From the IMG/VR virus record IMGVR_UViG_3300042401_001180: a stretch of DNA of 64,000 nucleotides, one strand, 5' to 3'. The notes under the pieces were generated by a model, which saw only the letters and a list, made by a program, of their open reading frames with translations, was not told the origin of the DNA and searched no databases. Of this stretch, positions 1,190 to 46,289 are shown in pieces (positions within the stretch are counted from its first letter, which is position 1; each line of letters starts with the position of its first letter). The translations under genes were made by a program, and so were the position numbers. The DNA comes from a virus (taxonomy: Duplodnaviria; Heunggongvirae; Uroviricota; Caudoviricetes).

Positions 1190-1864
1190 TTATCTTCCAA
1201 ATCTACCTCGTAAGGTATTATAATTATTTGTTACTTCATCATCCGACAATTTCCTATTATACATAAAAAATGAAGAAATATAACCTTTCATTGCATAATA
1301 AGCCATTGGGTTATTCCATGATCCTAAAAAATGAGGGCTGACACTATAAGTAACAGACGCATTAGATTGGCTCGCTTCTTTTATGTTATTTACATAAAAT
1401 TGTGCAATGTTATTAACCGAATCATAAGTATATGTAACATTGTTCCAAACGTTAAATGGACACGTATTAGTTGTTGTATAACTATCACCACCCATTTGAG
1501 CCAAGACAATTTTATTCGATCCCGTTCCAACTAAAATTCTATTATTAGTACCTTGACCAATTAGGGTATTGTATATGGTAGATCCAGTACTACCGACACC
1601 CGTTGATTGGAACCATAACGATATTGTAAAATCTGTTAATCCATTTATTGCTGGTAACTCGATTAAGTCATCAAGACCATCAAAACTAAAAGAACCTAAC
1701 CCAACAGATGAATAACCAACATTATTTATTAAATTACCATTTCTACTGTTTTTTGATAAATCATATACTACAGTGTCACCACTAAGATAACTTGATGTAT
1801 TTGCTGGATCATAATATATTAACAAACCATCCCTAATTAATCTACCTTTTACATTACCACTCAT
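1190..1864 (-). CDS. LamG-like jellyroll protein, paralog 2
   Basis: GLLIYYDPANTSSY, FDGLDD, FTISLWF, MYNRKLSDDEV..NYN.LRGRFG. Confidence 0.85.
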   Translation of the reverse strand: MSGNVKGRLIRDGLLIYYDPANTSSYLSGDTVVYDLSKNSRNGNLINNVGYSSVGLGSFSFDGLDDLIELPAINGLTDFTISLWFQSTGVGSTGSTIYNTLIGQGTNNRILVGTGSNKIVLAQMGGDSYTTTNTCPFNVWNNVTYTYDSVNNIAQFYVNNIKEASQSNASVTYSVSPHFLGSWNNPMAYYAMKGYISSFFMYNRKLSDDEVTNNYNTLRGRFGR

Positions 1865-9308: not shown

Positions 9309-10502
9309 TCAATCACAGATCCATACATCAACATTTGCTTTTGTTGATACAAAAGTTCTATATACATAATATATAATATTTTGTCCGTGAGAATCAATGA
9401 TTGTTATTTCATCAATTTTTACGAACGGTATAATAAATCCACCACAACCATCATTACTATTTCTAAATATTGTTGGTTGTTGCATTGTATTTGGTATTAA
9501 CATATAACAATAACCGTTAACTGCCGCGTACATTAAATAATTATTCACAATCTCGTTTGTTTCAATCGTACCCAACAAATTTAAATCATCAACATCAAAA
9601 TTTTGTTTTAAATATTTACCATAATAAACAGTTGGTAACACAACAACAGGTGTGCTTGTTGGTGTTGGTGTGTTTGTCGGTATTGGTGTACTTGTTGGTG
9701 TTGTGGTTGGCGTATTAGTCGGTGTTGGAGTTGGTGTCACTTTACCAGGTTTAACTGGTGTCATATAATGTATTTGTCTAAGTTCAGTAATAACGACTTG
9801 ACTATTGTCAACACCATAAACATCAACCACTAGTGATCCAATATTTGTATCTTCTGTTAGTTTATCATAATCTTCATCAATAATGATTTGTTTCGTCATT
9901 GATGTTTGTCCTTCTGGTATTGTTACAACAATATTAATTGGAGCGGTTCTATCATCTTCAAAGACTAAATTCTTGACAAAACTAACGGTTGTATCACGAA
10001 TCACTGGTGTGTTATTTGTTACGACAACATTAGCAATAACACTACCAGACATTATTGTCACATCAATTGAAAGATCCATTATAAACATCGGTGTTGACGG
10101 TGTTGGTGATGGTGTTAGAGTCGGTATAGGGATAAATGGTATGTTTCCACCAACACAACAAAATTCAGGGTCAACAAACGAATCAATAATATTTATATAC
10201 ATCCTATCTCTAAGAGGTAAAATTACTAACCCTTGAGACGTTGTTATATTAAATTCACCCTCAAACCTACCAACAGTCGATGTGTTTCGTTTTGTTAATT
10301 GATAATAAACTGATTCGTTTTCAACTGAGTACGTACAAACACCATTTGTTACTTTATAAAATCCCGTATCAACATCTCTCATAGAGAATGTTATAGTTGC
10401 TGAACTTAGACTTAATTTATGGTTATAATCTAATCTACCATCTTTAATGATGTCAACTTCTATTATGGGTAAGGTTGCCCTTTTTCTTATAAAAAATTCC
10501 AT
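9309..10502 (-). CDS. BppU/DUF2479-like N-terminal domain protein with Pro/Thr linkers (baseplate-associated)
   Basis: F.I.K..TLP.I......ITFSM....G...YQL....T...G.FEGEF.I; PTPT tracts at ~9660-9740 and ~10095-10125. Confidence 0.65.
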   Translation of the reverse strand: MEFFIRKRATLPIIEVDIIKDGRLDYNHKLSLSSATITFSMRDVDTGFYKVTNGVCTYSVENESVYYQLTKRNTSTVGRFEGEFNITTSQGLVILPLRDRMYINIIDSFVDPEFCCVGGNIPFIPIPTLTPSPTPSTPMFIMDLSIDVTIMSGSVIANVVVTNNTPVIRDTTVSFVKNLVFEDDRTAPINIVVTIPEGQTSMTKQIIIDEDYDKLTEDTNIGSLVVDVYGVDNSQVVITELRQIHYMTPVKPGKVTPTPTPTNTPTTTPTSTPIPTNTPTPTSTPVVVLPTVYYGKYLKQNFDVDDLNLLGTIETNEIVNNYLMYAAVNGYCYMLIPNTMQQPTIFRNSNDGCGGFIIPFVKIDEITIIDSHGQNIIYYVYRTFVSTKANVDVWICD

Positions 10503-10520
10503 ATTTATAAATACTTGTAT

Positions 10521-10549
10521 AAAAGAAAAGGTATCCTTTCGGACACCTT
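10521..10549 (-). terminator. Intrinsic terminator with GAAA tetraloop
   Basis: minus strand aaggtgtcc-gaaa-ggatacctt-ttctttt; G-U pairs and GNRA loop indicate the minus strand. Confidence 0.8.
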
Positions 10550-10552
10550 TCT

Positions 10553-10616
10553 TAGATTTTAGAACACCTCCCTTACTTTAAGGTTTATGAAAAAAGAGAA
10601 CTACCTCTTGATTCCT
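10553..10616 (-). ncRNA. Candidate structured RNA / 3' UTR element with extended complementarity to the Bacteroidota anti-Shine-Dalgarno
   Basis: two small hairpins (aagagg-tagt-tctctt; cctta-aag-taagg), then AAGGGAGGTGTTCT (10574-10561) with no ATG/GTG/TTG at normal spacing. Confidence 0.45.
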
Positions 10617-10633
10617 AAATTAAATCCGTTTTT

Positions 10634-12670
10634 TTAATCTTCCCCACCGACGGCATCTTGGACTTTACTGTCCATTTCAGTGGAAATCGCATCAATTGCC
10701 GTTTGTACTAACTTAGCAACTTCAGTTTTAAATTTGTTAGGGTCAACACTTGCAACCATAGATCCAAATATTCCGCCTTCTCCAAATTGATTTTTATAAT
10801 CTTCTAACGCCTTTTTTGAAATGATTTCACTTAATTCGTCAGATCTGTTTTCTTTAAATGCTCTCTCGATAACTTGCGGATCCAATTCATTAAACGCTGT
10901 TAAAATCATTTCATGTTCTTGTTGTTTATCCTTAACCGTATCTGCAATTTTTTGTCCTAATTGATTTTTTACGTCACTAATAAAATCTTTTCCAGAATCT
11001 TTCATAATTTCTAAAAAGTTTTCTTTAACTAATTTTCTATCGTAACCCTTTGAAATTAATTCCCTACTTTCACTTAAAAGATTCTTTTTTAAATGTCTTC
11101 TATTAGATGATTCCAAAACAAATAAAAGTCTTTTTTTAATAATATTCGATTCTTTTTTTAATAATGATTTTTTTTCTGTCTGTTCAGATATTACTTTTCT
11201 TATTGTTTGTCCTATATTCATATCTCTATTTTCCTTATAAATATCTCTTTGTTGCTGAAGTGTAAACCTAAGTTCAAAAATATCTAAATTTGGTGGTACG
11301 TTAGTTAGTTTATTAATTAGTTTTCTCATATTTTCTGAGTAACTATCTTTGTATTTCATAAAACACCACTGTACTTGATTTCTGTTCTCATCTATTACCT
11401 CATTACCACCTAACTCAGATATGGTGGCTTCTTTTCTTATAATGGATACCAAATCTTTATAATAACTTTTAGTTAGTCTTCTACACTCACCAATTTTAAT
11501 TTCTTTTGGTGGTTTTGGTTCTTTAACTTTTGGTACCTTAATGGGTACCAAGTTCCACGAATAAGTATCCTCTTTCCCATATTTAATGGTTCCATATCCC
11601 GCCATTGGTTTATATCCATCTTTTCTAATATCAAAGAAGAGTCTTACTTTTTTAACCGGATCATTTTCATCGTTAAATAACTCAAAATTACCTGTAGTAA
11701 TTTTTAAATTAGTTTCACCATTTTGGTTTGTTTCTAAGGATTGGAAAAGTTCTTGTCTATCTTTATCTTTATAAACATCTATTTTGACATTTGGTAATAT
11801 CTTATCGTTAGTATCAAATGTTGATAATTTAGCAGATATTTTAGGGACTAAAAGTTCTGTTTTAAATATATTACTATTTAAATGTTTTGGGCTTTTTACT
11901 GGTATTCCACTTTCACTGTCTGTCGGTGTAACAGTAATGTTACCCTCTTCTTTTGAAGATACAGTATTATATGATCCATTATTTAAACAGAAATTTATTT
12001 TTTGTTTAGTTTCAATATATCCTTTTATGTTAGTAACAACGATTAACTCTTTTTGCTCCTCACATGACTTACCCTGACTATAAAAATACCCATGTTCTTT
12101 ATTTTCTGGATACATTATTGTTTCACCTTTTTTAACTTGGTAATCAAAACCATTAAACATTAAGGTACTTCTACCCGTTTCAGAGGTGTATGTACCTATA
12201 AGTTTCTTTTTGTTATTGTATAAAGAATAGGATACGTTTGGTATATCTTTACCATCACTACCAACAAATATGAAATCTAAAACAGTTAATTTAGTGGCTG
12301 TTGCGTCAATACTTTGTAAATTATTAACTTTAGCGGATAATAAAATTTTAAAATCTAAAATGTCCTTATTGACTAAATTTATGTTATCACTAAAAGCAAG
12401 ATAGTTTTGTGTTTTTGCGTCTCCATATATCACATACTCACCTGAACTTAAACCACCAAATTTAAAATTACCATCGGCATCCGTTTTTACCATGCCCTTG
12501 GTTGCGTTTGACAAAGTTAGTGTGACTTTAGCATCAAAAATTGGTTCATTACTAGTGATGTCCAAAACTTTACCTCCAATAGATAATCCGGCAACCTCAT
12601 TTAATACTTTATGAAGGTTTAATATTTTTTCCCTTTCGGATTCCGATATGTTAATTTTTTTAATCATCAA
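10634..12670 (-). CDS. Carboxypeptidase-regulatory-like (beta-sandwich) domain protein with leader and internal leader-like segments
   Basis: I.G.V.D....PI..A.V.L......TD.DG.F.F..L..G.Y motif; N-terminus ISESEREKILNLH..LNE; internal MNIGQTIRKVISEQ. Confidence 0.7.
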   Translation of the reverse strand: MMIKKINISESEREKILNLHKVLNEVAGLSIGGKVLDITSNEPIFDAKVTLTLSNATKGMVKTDADGNFKFGGLSSGEYVIYGDAKTQNYLAFSDNINLVNKDILDFKILLSAKVNNLQSIDATATKLTVLDFIFVGSDGKDIPNVSYSLYNNKKKLIGTYTSETGRSTLMFNGFDYQVKKGETIMYPENKEHGYFYSQGKSCEEQKELIVVTNIKGYIETKQKINFCLNNGSYNTVSSKEEGNITVTPTDSESGIPVKSPKHLNSNIFKTELLVPKISAKLSTFDTNDKILPNVKIDVYKDKDRQELFQSLETNQNGETNLKITTGNFELFNDENDPVKKVRLFFDIRKDGYKPMAGYGTIKYGKEDTYSWNLVPIKVPKVKEPKPPKEIKIGECRRLTKSYYKDLVSIIRKEATISELGGNEVIDENRNQVQWCFMKYKDSYSENMRKLINKLTNVPPNLDIFELRFTLQQQRDIYKENRDMNIGQTIRKVISEQTEKKSLLKKESNIIKKRLLFVLESSNRRHLKKNLLSESRELISKGYDRKLVKENFLEIMKDSGKDFISDVKNQLGQKIADTVKDKQQEHEMILTAFNELDPQVIERAFKENRSDELSEIISKKALEDYKNQFGEGGIFGSMVASVDPNKFKTEVAKLVQTAIDAISTEMDSKVQDAVGGED

Positions 12671-15911: not shown

Positions 15912-15949
15912 CTTTTTTATATATAAATATTATGTTAATTTTTATTTTT

Positions 15950-32672: not shown

Positions 32673-32723
32673 AATTTTCTTTTTTTATAAATATACAGTT
32701 ATTTTTATTTATTAGTTTAATTC

Positions 32724-42878: not shown

Positions 42879-42901
42879 ATAAGATAAATATACAACAAAA
42901 T

Positions 42902-42932
42902 AAAAAACCCCTCCTTAGTTGGAAGGGGGTTT
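42902..42932 (-). terminator. Intrinsic terminator
   Basis: aaaaaacccctcc...ggaagggggttt. Confidence 0.75.
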
Positions 42933-44931: not shown

Positions 44932-45926
44932 TAATGTTAATAAGTATTTGTTGATAAATAAATAGTAAATTGTACCTGACACTACTCGTGTGGACAATCG
45001 GACACTATGACAGGGGGATATTGTTAATAACTTTTTATGTTAATTTTCTTGATTTTGTCAAAATGTCAGTCACGCTTTACACGGGGGACAATCCCTTTTA
45101 CCACTTTCTCCCACCTATTATTCCCACTTATTTACACCATTTATTCCCCTCTTGCTATCTGTACCCTAAAAAAACCCCTCTGTAGGTACCTGTAGGACTA
45201 TTTTTTTTACTATATACATTTTCCAGCTAAAAAGTGTTCTTATACTGTAGGGGTGCGGGAGACGAAGTCCTAAAGTATATCCAACGTATAAAACAGGTAA
45301 ATGTGTCATATAATACCCCCAACGTATAAAGGATCACTTAGATAAGATATTATAATAGTGGTAATAAGTGGGACTTCTCATACGCAAATATACGGTAGAT
45401 GTAAACGTTTACCGTATATTTGCCCATCCCCCACATTATATGTAAATGAACATGACAGTCCATTAGTATACCACCTCATCTATATGTTCCTACATACAAT
45501 TCATATTGTTTTAACGAAGTTATATTTAAATGAATATAATCTTGAACATACATAAACATCTTATGTAATTATCCCCTAAGTAATGGGGGACATTCTATTA
45601 ATTACTGATGGAGACATCTTATTAAACCACCCATTAAATGGGGGAAAATACTTTTTACATTATGATTTAAGGTATGTCCCATTAATTACCACATATCCTT
45701 TATAGATATGTAATGTTTATCATTGTAGAATTTCTACAATAATACGTTTATTGTGATTTTTCTACAATAAGAGTATTATACGTAGGTAAAGATTACTCTT
45801 GTTTTTAATACGTAGGTAATTACTACTCTTGTTCACTATAAGAGTATAGGATTAAGTTATGAAACGAAGAACGTAGTGAATGAAATGAACGGTAGAGATG
45901 AGTGAGTAAATTAAATCTATACTCTT

Positions 45927-46289
45927 TTACTTTCTTGGTAGATAATATCTTTTGTAAAAATGATTATAACTATCTATGTGTGAACACCCCCCTTTCATAT
46001 CAAATTGTAGTCCGAAGTAGTTATGGACTTCTTTTCTTATATTTTTTAGTATTTTGTGTAATTTATCTGATTCTACCATTGTAAATGGTTTTTTAAATAA
46101 TGCGGTGATTTCACACGTTTCATTATCATCAATTATATCCACAGCAACACCATAAAAGTTTTCAGGTAGTTCATAATCTTTCAATAACATATTTACAAAA
46201 TCTGTGATTGATTTTTCTAATGGAGTTCTTTTTGGTATGTCTTCCGTTTCCTCCTTTAATACTTTTCTTATGTGTTCTTGTAGGTTCAT
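45927..46289 (-). CDS. Leader-bearing hypothetical protein (MNLQEHIRKVLKEE)
   Basis: 120 aa. Confidence 0.8.
   Translation of the reverse strand: MNLQEHIRKVLKEETEDIPKRTPLEKSITDFVNMLLKDYELPENFYGVAVDIIDDNETCEITALFKKPFTMVESDKLHKILKNIRKEVHNYFGLQFDMKGGCSHIDSYNHFYKRYYLPRK

Follow-up and report, generated by a model that had tools for sequence, protein, structure and literature searches.

A non-coding element in a T4-like phage carries an extended Shine-Dalgarno (SD) sequence complementary to the 3' end of Bacteroidota 16S rRNA, is conserved among lake phages in unrelated gene contexts, is closed by an intrinsic terminator with no open reading frame (ORF) behind the SD, and shares its genome with a gene for bS21. 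The phage probably makes from it a decoy RNA that takes hold of the 16S tail and interferes with the bS21 control loop of its host. Judging from the sequence comparisons described below, we put at roughly one half the probability that the element imitates the initiation region of host rpsU, minus the start codon, on a terminator-ended RNA, which would occupy freed anti-SD tails or evict bS21. In Bacteroidia ribosomes the 16S tail is buried beneath bS21, bS18, and bS6, and only an extended SD of the rpsU type engages it; to our knowledge, bS21 autoregulation through the rpsU extended SD is the sole use made of the freed tail in this group.

The element and its predicted pairing with the 16S tail

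The element lies on the minus strand of the window (the whole 64-kb stretch of DNA that was analysed, GC content 30.7%), inside a 131-nt gap between the stop codon of a 678-aa gene and the ATG of a 397-aa gene, and it falls within the 3' untranslated region of the former (Table 1). The letters of the window read AAGGGAGGTGTTCT at 10574-10561, with AAA-ATC-TAA directly 3' of it at 10560-10552 and a terminator with a GAAA loop beyond. An earlier note on this DNA had described this arrangement, and both the sequence and the terminator scan bear it out. The two small hairpins that the note placed upstream fared less well: the one at 10609-10594 does fold, but such hairpins are confined to the close relatives of the window and lie outside the conserved element. 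The 678-aa product has an N-terminal carboxypeptidase-regulatory or prealbumin-like domain (Pfam PF13620, PF17802) and is probably a tail or fibre protein. In the 397-aa protein, the N-terminal 116 aa are kept in relatives and the C-terminal part is swapped among them. The TATTTAT motif ahead of the latter gene is found before many genes of this phage, structural genes included, and its position suggests that the terminator closes one transcription unit and that the next unit begins there. For the ATAAA box upstream of the core we see three possible roles: a promoter component, a site of processing, or the 5' arm of a weak hairpin whose partner is the beginning of the core. Rfam cmscan of the whole window gave 0 matches at or above gathering thresholds, blastn of 9309-12670 against named phage genomes (INPHARED) gave no match, and PHROG and Pfam searches of the flanking genes in the gene contexts here called A, B, and C gave almost no informative match.

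Table 1. Features of the element and its surroundings, with positions in the window.
Feature	Position	Strand	Basis
Upstream gene, 678 aa	10634-12670	minus	ORF list; gene call on the source contig agrees; Pfam PF13620 and PF17802
Small hairpin AAGAGG-UAGU-UCUCUU, followed by U residues	10594-10609	minus	Fold; alignment, where it is present in window-like rows only
CATAAACC box, with ATAAA at 10588-10584	10582-10589	minus	Family comparison; MFE structures
Invariant 13-nt core AAGGGAGGTGTTC, complement of 16S rRNA nt 1530-1542	10562-10574	minus	Duplex and family alignment
A-rich spacer AAAATCTAA, with conserved TCT at 10556-10554; ATG, GTG, and TTG absent	10552-10560	minus	Sequence; alignment
Intrinsic terminator: 11-pair stem, GAAA loop, U tract	10521-10551	minus	Terminator scan
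TATTTAT promoter-like motif, 4 nt 5' of the downstream ATG	10507-10513	minus	Motif comparison within the phage
Downstream gene, 397 aa, starting MEFFIRK	9309-10502	minus	ORF list; weak PHROG match only

The Bacteroidota 16S 3' end given in the earlier note was confirmed: the 22-mer GCGGCTGGAACACCTCCTTTCT occurs in at least 120 genome-contig stretches, and nearly all of those listed are Bacteroidota by title. With this tail the window element forms 14 contiguous pairs, 2 of them G-U, just as had been claimed. Taking at least 9-13 consecutive pairs with the 16S tail and a predicted free energy below -13 kcal/mol as the mark of an rpsU-type extended SD, the element belongs to that type at -22.7 kcal/mol, the strongest anti-SD duplex in a scan of the whole window. 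Beyond the core, T10561 is able to pair with G1529 and A10560 with U1528. The core includes GGTGTTC, which matches the Bacteroidota-type GAACACC of the 16S tail; most other bacteria have GATCACC at that position. Two points count against a decoy: in the predicted fold the core is only about 40% unpaired inside its own RNA, and G1529 and U1528 may, we presume, be unavailable for pairing if they are held in helix 45.

The genes of the window are SD-less (upstream of 87 starts the best duplex averages -2.36 kcal/mol, and in random 22-mers -3.78 kcal/mol), in agreement with the earlier note, which had noticed no comparable SD before them, and the carriers checked are likewise SD-less phages. The second-best anti-SD site in the window (45995-45980) lies inside an ORF, has no terminator after it, and is treated as chance. 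A 14-pair run with at most 2 G-U pairs also arose in 3 of 300 block-shuffled windows and many windows were scanned, so the single occurrence is not significant, and the case rests on conservation.

Conservation in lake phages

T4-like lake phages of low GC and without SDs yielded 65 distinct versions of the element, which occupy at least 3 unrelated gene contexts. The earlier note had proposed a check of related phages for conservation and covariation, and both were found, as an invariant core and compensated terminator stems. The 13-nt core is invariant but for A-to-G or T/C changes, all of which preserve pairing with 16S nt 1529-1542; this invariance is partly by construction, most members having been retrieved by patterns that contain the core, and unbiased support for conservation comes from loci found by protein homology (L003, L004), from the differing contexts, and from positions that were not selected. 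Two classes of core are found, one in which a G faces U1540 and one in which it faces U1537. At its 3' boundary the core has T or C, opposite G1529, and the position opposite C1543 is mismatched in 96% of sequences, so the paired block stops at the end of the 16S tail.

Around the core, the 65 sequences have 41 distinct hairpins, all with a T run after them, and the upstream 25-mer takes 39 forms. The core does not change among the 25 syntenic versions, while their terminator stems co-vary. In the terminator stems 97.4% of cells are paired and both sides have changed in 6 of 11 pairs, a result matched by 0 of 500 shuffles (slid controls are 37-67% paired). Identity of the core block between the window and L003 is 95%, against 77-81% in the flanking genes; for L132 the corresponding values are 89% and 61-71%. 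Purifying selection appears to act on the primary sequence of the element. The layout is also kept: an ATAAA box lies 3-19 nt 5' of the core in 64 of 65 members (background 0.10), the hairpin begins 6-14 nt past the core (commonest spacing 10), and no ATG, GTG, or TTG stands between core and hairpin in any of 67 sequences. Each of the 4 carriers searched whole (G003, G006, G009, G014) has one copy per record.

Gene neighbourhoods differ widely. In context A, that of the window, many relatives have the upstream stop codon only about 13 nt from the CATAAACC box. A 28-kb phage (L044) has the core between proteins unrelated to the neighbours in the window (BLASTP E 0.36-0.89). Context C (L111, L351) has a different upstream gene, whose products are 30% identical between the two, and in both members, the flanks of which were read, a bidirectional terminator is followed by a convergent gene. 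A 2-mismatch search found in a further genome (G002) the variant AAGGGGGTGTTC with a ATAAACCTTA box and a terminator, at another locus.

A second family (L534, L536), from bS21-encoding lake phages, likewise has an orphan extended SD (GAAAAGGAGGTGTT or GAAAGGAGGTATTC), TAATCTC, a terminator, and no ORF. Upstream of it stand a TATTTATA promoter motif and a structured leader of about 50 nt, whereas the window family has the short ATAAA box only and in context A adjoins the end of a gene. Marine contigs of 4-7 kb with the same 14-mer were rejected as unrelated; in these the motif lies amid iteron-like GTGTTCC repeats beside TTGACA..TAAAAT. For phages of ASD2 hosts (Chryseobacterium, Riemerella) we take the relevant tail sequence to be AUCUCAUU. 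A search for an SD2-type decoy suited to Chryseobacterium-type tails (pattern AAARTGAGRTGTTCYAA) was uninformative, with 40 matches, 0 of them followed by a terminator and 0 in a decoy-like setting.

Likeness to rpsU and the bS21 genes of phages

The extended SD of rpsU and the autoregulation of bS21 have been described in Flavobacteriales and other Bacteroidia (Jha 2021, PMC7797042; McNutt 2023, PMC9976891; PMC13000457 and PMC13000453, 2026). Translation of rpsU needs an SD-ASD helix of 9-13 bp with ribosomes free of bS21 (PMC9976891, PMC13000453); the 13-bp rpsU helix excludes bS21, which is absent from 65% of wild-type complexes (PMC13000457). The rpsU extended SD and the phage element both offer 13-14 consecutive pairs to the 16S tail, and the predicted stability of the element is equal or greater (-22.3 to -25.9 kcal/mol across the family, against -19.2 to -22.7 kcal/mol for 32 Flavobacterium rpsU leaders). 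The likeness extends to the surrounding sequence, CCTTAA..GAAAGG..GGTGT..CTA, with CCTTAA(A/C)GA(A/G)AGG upstream and GTGT(T)CTAnAnT downstream when compared with those 32 leaders. Each is, moreover, the only strong SD of an otherwise SD-less genome. The element differs from rpsU in that no ATG stands at the place of the host start codon, which in rpsU follows the SD by about 7-10 nt and opens the bS21 frame, and no ORF lies behind, a terminator hairpin taking the place of the coding region; in being encoded by a phage, 28 kb from an SD-less phage bS21 gene; and in the register of its helix, which at 16S nt 1529-1542 is shifted 2-3 nt towards helix 45 from the helix of rpsU mRNA at 1532-1544 (PMC13000457).

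That bS21 gene lies on the reverse strand of the window's own 270.5-kb T4-like contig, in the late structural module among terminase, portal, and prohead protease genes. bS21 is also encoded by 8 of 9 syntenic contigs and by G014, and the phage bS21 genes have no SD. The co-occurrence with phage rpsU that the earlier note had proposed to check therefore holds for these genomes, but not for G002 (296 kb, judged complete) or for the 28-kb phages G012 and G013, in which the decoy is present and no PF01165 match was found. Some large bS21-encoding contigs (e.g. G068, 88% complete) have no non-coding element match. Carriage of the element is not tied strictly to phage bS21. The proposal of a 30S decoy tied to the bS21 circuit survives in part: the decoy itself is favoured by pairing-preserving conservation in unrelated contexts, by rpsU-grade strength, and by bS21 in most tested carriers. 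For a phage with no bS21 of its own, the gain from less host bS21 is unclear, because bS21-free ribosomes are poor at translating SD-less mRNAs (PMC9976891). A scan of genome contigs with the phage bS21 alignment, seeking host genes, gave no confirmed locus, and a protein search with phage bS21 returned phage-type bS21 clusters only and no bacterial ones.

The bS21 phages of Chen et al. 2022 (PMC9723584) belong to the same group as the phage of the window, being of low GC and from lake metagenomes and having a reverse-strand bS21 gene in the late structural module beside those for portal and prohead protease, and the predicted hosts of such phages are Bacteroidetes/Flavobacterium. Phage bS21 as described there and the element both point at one ribosomal site. 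That study covers the bS21 protein only, whereas the element also occurs in phages where a bS21 gene was not found; its text, searched for Shine-Dalgarno, 16S rRNA, and terminator, does not mention such an RNA element.

Alternative readings and proposed function

Decoy RNAs of comparable design are known in bacteria. 6S RNA, a mimic of open promoter DNA, sequesters RNA polymerase, and the GGA repeats of CsrB/RsmZ titrate CsrA. Like these, the element would be a non-coding RNA that copies the recognition sequence of a natural ligand, with nothing expressed behind it, and that occupies the site of a central machine; it differs from them in its proposed target (an rRNA tail bound by Watson-Crick pairing, not a protein), in having a single site per RNA, and in being viral. 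STAB-SD, too, is an SD-like sequence that stands alone, without a start codon; it is proposed to act by binding the 16S 3' end, and near the 5' end of a long mRNA in an SD-using host it blocks 5' decay. The STAB-SD of Bacillus thuringiensis cryIIIA mRNA was reportedly shown by Agaisse and Lereclus in 1996 to stabilise that message. The phage element, by contrast, stands where a transcription unit ends, and the ribosomes of its host disregard ordinary SDs; a 5' stabiliser of the STAB-SD type was rejected, the element lying past the upstream stop codon and 6-14 nt before the terminator.

This placement at the end of a transcription unit, seen wherever flanks were read, is what would be expected of an element acting in cis, where the extended SD beside the terminator retains a ribosome (e.g. 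one that has finished translating the tail gene), with no effect on bS21 in trans, and where this protects the 3' end of the transcript, aids ribosome recycling, or modulates termination and read-through. A 30S subunit bound to the core would, from the spacing, cover the 5' arm of the terminator; in context A no TATTTAT motif occurs between the upstream stop codon and the element, and the stop is often close to the box, as noted above. An RNA-library contig of 294 nt from one lake metatranscriptome run, spanning 10468-10592 of a relative (element, terminator, and next ATG), continues through the terminator. The contig is also a weak hint that the element is expressed, although DNA carry-over is possible, and the run has a small share of words as contigs only, so that ends, strand, and level are unreadable and uncovered parts uninformative. 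We nonetheless regard an action confined to cis as unlikely. In the carriers searched whole, only one transcription unit per genome has the element despite many terminators, whereas an element for stabilising mRNA or recycling ribosomes in general should recur at many units; the convergent next gene of context C leaves read-through control with no target; upstream genes differ by context, so no particular mRNA is served; and since replete Bacteroidia ribosomes ignore ordinary SDs (PMC7797042, PMC13000457), rpsU-grade strength points to the bS21 circuit. The attenuator that the earlier note had offered, or an alternative pairing with the 3' arm of the terminator, is not supported, because the arms vary freely and co-vary with each other and not with the invariant core, and because context C offers nothing to read into. 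A split ribosome-binding site, in which the hairpin would deliver the SD to the downstream ATG, was also rejected: from hairpin to ATG there are still about 23 nt, and in context C there is no gene downstream.

If the RNA does act in trans, its partner might be an anti-SD-like CACCUCC in another RNA (a second sRNA of the phage, or an mRNA of phage or host) in place of the ribosome, with the core serving as the seed of an sRNA that is derived from the 3' untranslated region or has its own promoter. The architecture is that of a typical sRNA, in which a terminator hairpin and U tail follow a single-stranded seed, the ATAAA box stands upstream in nearly all members, and the TATTTATA promoter motif lies about 55 nt upstream in the second-family relatives. 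No partner with at least 12 Watson-Crick pairs was found, however, in the 64-kb window and the 28 kb beyond its start, where G-U-tolerant matches to the conserved block were T-rich noise; no partner other than the 16S tail is known to be fully conserved in every host, the boundaries of the block coincide with the end of that tail, and the likeness to the rpsU leader reaches beyond the seed. Such an sRNA is in our view decidedly unlikely. An operator or a site for an RNA-binding protein, its SD likeness being coincidental, would equally be expected to keep its primary sequence strictly and to have no internal covariation partner, and the conserved TCT and ATAAA boxes are left unexplained by anti-SD pairing. 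What makes a protein-binding or DNA-level site improbable is that all core substitutions are transitions that preserve 16S pairing (A-to-G opposite U, T/C opposite G), a rule unexpected for a protein site; that its orientation and its distance from an RNA hairpin are constant speaks for a role at the RNA level, and GGTGTTC in the core matches the tail type of Bacteroidota in particular. The least credible reading, to which we give very little weight, is that a minimal or non-canonical ORF (AUC-UAA or GUG-UUC-UAA) has its ribosome-binding site here, or that the element is a decaying rpsU relic. ATC-TAA does occur 7-9 nt past GGAGG in contexts A and B, and the element is similar to the rpsU leader. 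The AUC-UAA start-stop suggested in the earlier note nevertheless fails in context C, where the spacers read GGTCTCAA or ATATCTACC and ATC-TAA is absent, and AUC is a non-canonical start; frames after the core differ among close relatives through 1-nt indels in the A run, none of the 67 sequences offers ATG, GTG, or TTG before the hairpin, and a relic would not remain invariant while neighbouring genes diverge to 30% identity.

For the preferred reading, that of an rpsU initiation mimic, we envisage a non-coding RNA module set 6-14 nt before the terminator hairpin and transcribed at the 3' end of the late tail-gene transcript, or possibly from its own promoter. Its product would be a hairpin-protected RNA end in which 13-15 single-stranded nt could pair with 16S nt 1528/1529-1542 in an extended SD-anti-SD helix. 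Given a tail that is buried and that only an rpsU-type SD engages, such an RNA should trap bS21-less ribosomes, in competition with host rpsU mRNA (the sole host message dependent on them), or evict bS21 from ribosomes, or do both. By either route bS21 autoregulation in the host would be broken, and in phages with their own SD-less bS21 gene the replacement of host bS21 by the phage protein would be favoured. We observe the sequence and its conservation, the potential for pairing, the terminator, the missing ORF, and a bS21 gene in one and the same genome; a discrete RNA, its binding to ribosomes, and its effect on bS21 are what we infer.

McNutt et al. expected such phages to encode a factor that aids bS21 exchange (PMC9976891). 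As a tentative possibility, the RNA may be that factor, stripping host bS21 and blocking the one route by which the host makes it anew. Its helix of 14-15 bp with the 16S tail would then remove host bS21 from mature ribosomes, and the ribosome pool would receive phage bS21, or stay bS21-free in phages with no such gene. The terminator hairpin would keep the RNA outside the mRNA channel, and a decoy-bound ribosome could still translate; late phage messages might gain; in many of them TATTTAT stands only 4-6 nt ahead of the ATG, and these may lack a leader.

Many aquatic phages of Bacteroidia hosts carry bS21, which raises the question of how phage bS21 is brought onto ribosomes and the compensating loop of the host defeated (PMC9976891, PMC9723584); a conserved, ORF-less SD of rpsU grade is a concrete candidate for the missing factor. 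Literature searches found no published case of such a phage element. The element is directly testable with published F. johnsoniae systems, and it provides a sequence signature for spotting Bacteroidota phages and for predicting the anti-SD type of their hosts. If the proposed function is true, the element would exemplify a virus that targets the rRNA tail by a mimic RNA, and, if it is also the bS21 exchange factor, it would be the first viral RNA to reprogram ribosome composition through rRNA pairing.

Layout of the element and its predicted pairing with the 16S tail

The element is housed in a 131-nt gap between a 678-aa gene and a 397-aa gene, and its layout as first described (14-mer, hairpins, spacer and GAAA-loop terminator) proved accurate when re-read in the sequence. 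Rfam shows no match to it or to anything else in the window.

Positions of the element's parts and of other sites in the window
Feature	Position	Strand	Remark
678-aa gene	10634-12670	-	borders the gap
Small hairpin	10609-10594	-	first part of the gap, 5' to 3'
CATAAACC box	10589-10582	-	upstream of the 14-mer
14-mer AAGGGAGGTGTTCT	10574-10561	-	anti-SD complement
A-rich spacer AAAATCTAA		-	between 14-mer and terminator hairpin
11-pair hairpin, GAAA loop, U tract	10551-10521	-	after the spacer
TATTTAT motif	10513-10507	-	3' of the terminator
ATG of next gene	10502	-	397-aa gene
397-aa gene	9309-10502	-	borders the gap
TATTTAT(A), examples	10507-10513, 15912-15949, 32673-32723, 42879-42914	-	
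AAAGGGGGGTGTTCAC	45980-45995	-	second-best anti-SD complement
ORF enclosing AAAGGGGGGTGTTCAC	45927-46289		peptide ..DMKGGCSH..
Stretch without long ORF	44997-45927		about 930 nt

The 3' end of Bacteroidota 16S rRNA is as the earlier note gives it: at least 120 stretches of genome contigs contain GCGGCTGGAACACCTCCTTTCT, those listed being nearly all Bacteroidota by record title. The 14-mer can thus pair with 14 consecutive nucleotides of this tail, two of the pairs being G-U, as the earlier note had claimed. The duplex (-22.7 kcal/mol) is the strongest with the anti-SD within the window, whose GC content is 30.7%. SDs are not used by the window's genes, which bears out their reported absence; the best upstream duplex averages -2.36 kcal/mol over 87 starts, weaker than random 22-mers (-3.78 kcal/mol). 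A lone site of this kind is not remarkable given the size of the scan, because a 14-pair run arose in 3 of 300 block-shuffled windows. The second-best complement, AAAGGGGGGTGTTCAC (-21.1 kcal/mol), was rejected as a second element; it lies inside an ORF, has no terminator behind it, and is probably a chance occurrence. In the stretch without a long ORF, AT-rich blocks accompany short direct repeats (TACCTACGTAT, ATTGTAGAAA); an origin, RNA genes or regulatory sites may lie in it.

Read on the opposite strand, the TATTTAT(A) motif gives the T4 late-promoter word TATAAATA. It lies at most 60 nt before 33 of the 87 window genes (in 16 of those the ATG follows after only 4-6 nt), is strand-biased (61 vs 30), and also precedes structural genes of the same contig. 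Should the motif act as a -10-like element, many late mRNAs would have little or no leader.

Conservation across phages and constraint on the core

The element is real, conserved and non-coding. Conservation in related phages, proposed earlier as a check, is borne out by pattern scans of viral and metagenome contigs, which give a family of 65 distinct members in at least three gene contexts; the hairpin takes 41 forms and the upstream 25-mer 39. The element is also retained at L003 and L004, two loci found through homology of their flanking proteins. It is more conserved than the neighbouring genes: the core block is 95% identical between the window and L003 (flanking genes 77-81%), and the element is 89% identical between the window and locus L132 (flanking genes 61-71%). 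Context A is the window's own arrangement, upstream of a gene starting MEF(F/N)IRK. Context B is a 28-kb phage (L044, L046) in which the element is flanked by proteins of 759 and 1059 aa with no relation to those of the window. In context C (L111 and L351, the two with flanks read) the element lies downstream of another gene, with products only 30% identical between the two loci, and behind it come a bidirectional terminator and a clpP or HNH gene in convergent orientation. The carrier records G003, G006, G009 and G014 each yielded a single copy in pattern searches, and the complete 296-kb genome G002 has a variant at a further locus.

The HNH endonuclease gene of L351 (5627-6043, minus strand) converges on the bidirectional terminator, and the site may be a hotspot for mobile-gene insertion. 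The window's 397-aa gene is modular by comparison with L001-L004: residues 1-116 are conserved and form a stand-alone short ORF in L003 and L004, while in L002 a 1010-aa protein ends in a counterpart of residues 138-397, the kind of module shuffling typical of tail fibres. Marine contigs of 4-7 kb (L017, L031, L032, L039, L099 and others; GC ~0.45) carrying the same 14-mer were set aside as unrelated to the lake-phage element. In these contigs the 14-mer belongs to a conserved stretch of non-coding DNA next to TTGACA..TAAAAT; around it GTGTTCC/GGAACAC words recur and resemble the iterons of a small replicon.

Pairing in the terminator stem reaches 97.4% over 25 syntenic sequences, and 6 of 11 pairs are altered on both sides; none of 500 shuffles does as well, slid controls are 37-67% paired, and covariation, the other check proposed, is thereby found. 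Divergence has thus been ample for change, and the hairpin is selected as structure; the core, because it has no partner inside the RNA, is selected as sequence. Across 29 sequences from all contexts AAGGGAGGTGTTC is the sole contiguous invariant block; most members were fetched by core-containing patterns, and invariance of positions 1530-1542 in that set is partly by construction. Support independent of the patterns comes from the homology-fetched loci, the unrelated contexts, the contrast of two wobble classes and the edge positions that were not selected. The classes, AAGGGAGG and AAAGGGGG, differ in whether a G faces U1540 or U1537, and all changes between them preserve pairing with the tail. 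At the 3' edge G1529 faces T or C, and the base opposite C1543 is mismatched in 96% of sequences. Further constants are TCT after the core, a core-to-hairpin distance of 6-14 nt (commonest 10), and an ATAAA box, carried 3-19 nt upstream by 64 of 65 members (background ~0.10). The element very probably works at the RNA level and is aimed at the 16S 3' tail.

Likeness to host rpsU leaders, and phage bS21 genes

The rpsU loci of 32 Flavobacterium genomes share a leader of the pattern TAnnTTTG-ca(n)-CCTTAA(C/A)-GA(G/A)AGG(A/G)GGTGT-CTATATT-ATG. With the tail these leaders are predicted to form duplexes of -19.2 to -22.7 kcal/mol, and the phage family duplexes of -22.3 to -25.9 kcal/mol (mean -23.7). 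Phage element and host leader align from CCTTAA through the SD to the spacer, some host leaders even sharing AAGGGAGGTGT or CTTAAAGAAAGGG with it, and the host ATG lines up with CTA or ATC in the phage, behind which the terminator lies. By this alignment the element therefore reads as an rpsU initiation region without start codon or gene: it is likened to the rpsU extended SD in its working, but lacks the start codon and ORF that define that type. The likeness may reflect either capture of a host leader or convergence. Mimic and sponge RNAs (6S RNA, CsrB) and the orphan STAB-SD follow a similar logic; the element differs from them in target and position. A literature search turned up no account of an orphan SD or an anti-SD decoy carried by a phage.

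A second orphan extended-SD family occurs in other bS21-encoding phage contigs (L534, ~1390-1590, minus strand; L536, ~1420-1600, plus strand). A TATTTATA promoter motif is followed by some 50 nt of leader, which includes a GGTTTGGTC..hairpin, and then by GAAAAGGAGGTGTT or GAAAGGAGGTATTC, TAATCTC and a terminator; in L536 all three frames are closed around the core.

By exact protein match the window belongs to a 270,513-bp metagenome contig with genes for a T4-type portal, a large terminase and a T4 gp21-type prohead protease, among which, on the opposite strand and ~28 kb from the element, lies a bS21 gene (PF01165). The contig fits the jumbo myoviruses that encode bS21 and infect Bacteroidetes, a group which a CRISPR spacer points to Flavobacterium as host (Chen et al. 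2022, PMC9723584). The suggested tie to phage bS21 holds for most carriers and is not strict: bS21 is present in 8 of 9 syntenic contigs, in G014, G064, G066 and G069 and in the window's own contig, while G002, G012 and G013 have the element and no bS21 match, and no co-occurrence statistic is claimed from these counts because the carrier contigs are mostly fragments and related to one another. No clear element was seen in G068, which encodes bS21 and is 88% complete. Between the context C phage G014 and the window's relatives, bS21 identity is only 49%. Leaders of the phage bS21 genes are A-rich and without an SD. The Flavobacterium genome G046 has four PF01165 matches, three of them weaker and on separate contigs (C196, C197, C207), which may be phage or prophage copies binned with the host genome.

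Competing readings and a possible role

Several earlier suggestions did not survive comparison. The two upstream hairpins are lineage-specific. The AUC-UAA start-stop is absent from context C, and frames after the core shift among close relatives; ATG, GTG and TTG are absent between core and hairpin in 67 of 67 sequences, and a tiny ORF or relic is very improbable. In the window the core could form 12 pairs (5 G-U) with the terminator 3' arm, an alternative that is not maintained, the terminator arms co-changing while the core stays fixed. In context C the gene that follows runs convergently, leaving an attenuator without a target. The same arrangement counts against read-through control by a cis-acting 3'-end element, and that broader reading, which also takes in ribosome docking, transcript stabilisation or termination control, is unlikely. 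The core might instead be an sRNA seed for another RNA, but no partner was found in 92 kb of the window's genome, and we consider this slightly less likely still. A protein or DNA site sits poorly with wobble-only substitutions and is improbable.

In replete Bacteroidia ribosomes the 16S tail is buried under bS21, bS18 and bS6, and ordinary SDs are ignored (PMC7797042); translation of rpsU relies on a helix of 9-13 bp and is carried out preferentially by ribosomes lacking bS21 (PMC9976891, PMC13000453). McNutt et al. speculate that phages with bS21 encode a factor favouring its exchange, and see in the autoregulatory loop a possible counter-measure of the host (PMC9976891). The one hint of expression is a lake-metatranscriptome contig of 294 nt that spans a relative's element, terminator and next ATG; it shows no ends and may be of DNA origin. 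The sequence facts are observed; transcription as a discrete RNA, binding, and an effect on bS21 we infer. An abundant late RNA end without a start codon, whose extended SD is of equal or greater strength, would compete for liberated tails with rpsU mRNA, and could also strip bS21 from replete ribosomes, an explanation of the element to which we assign a probability of about one half. The phage's own bS21 gene, having no SD, would be unaffected by such a decoy RNA.
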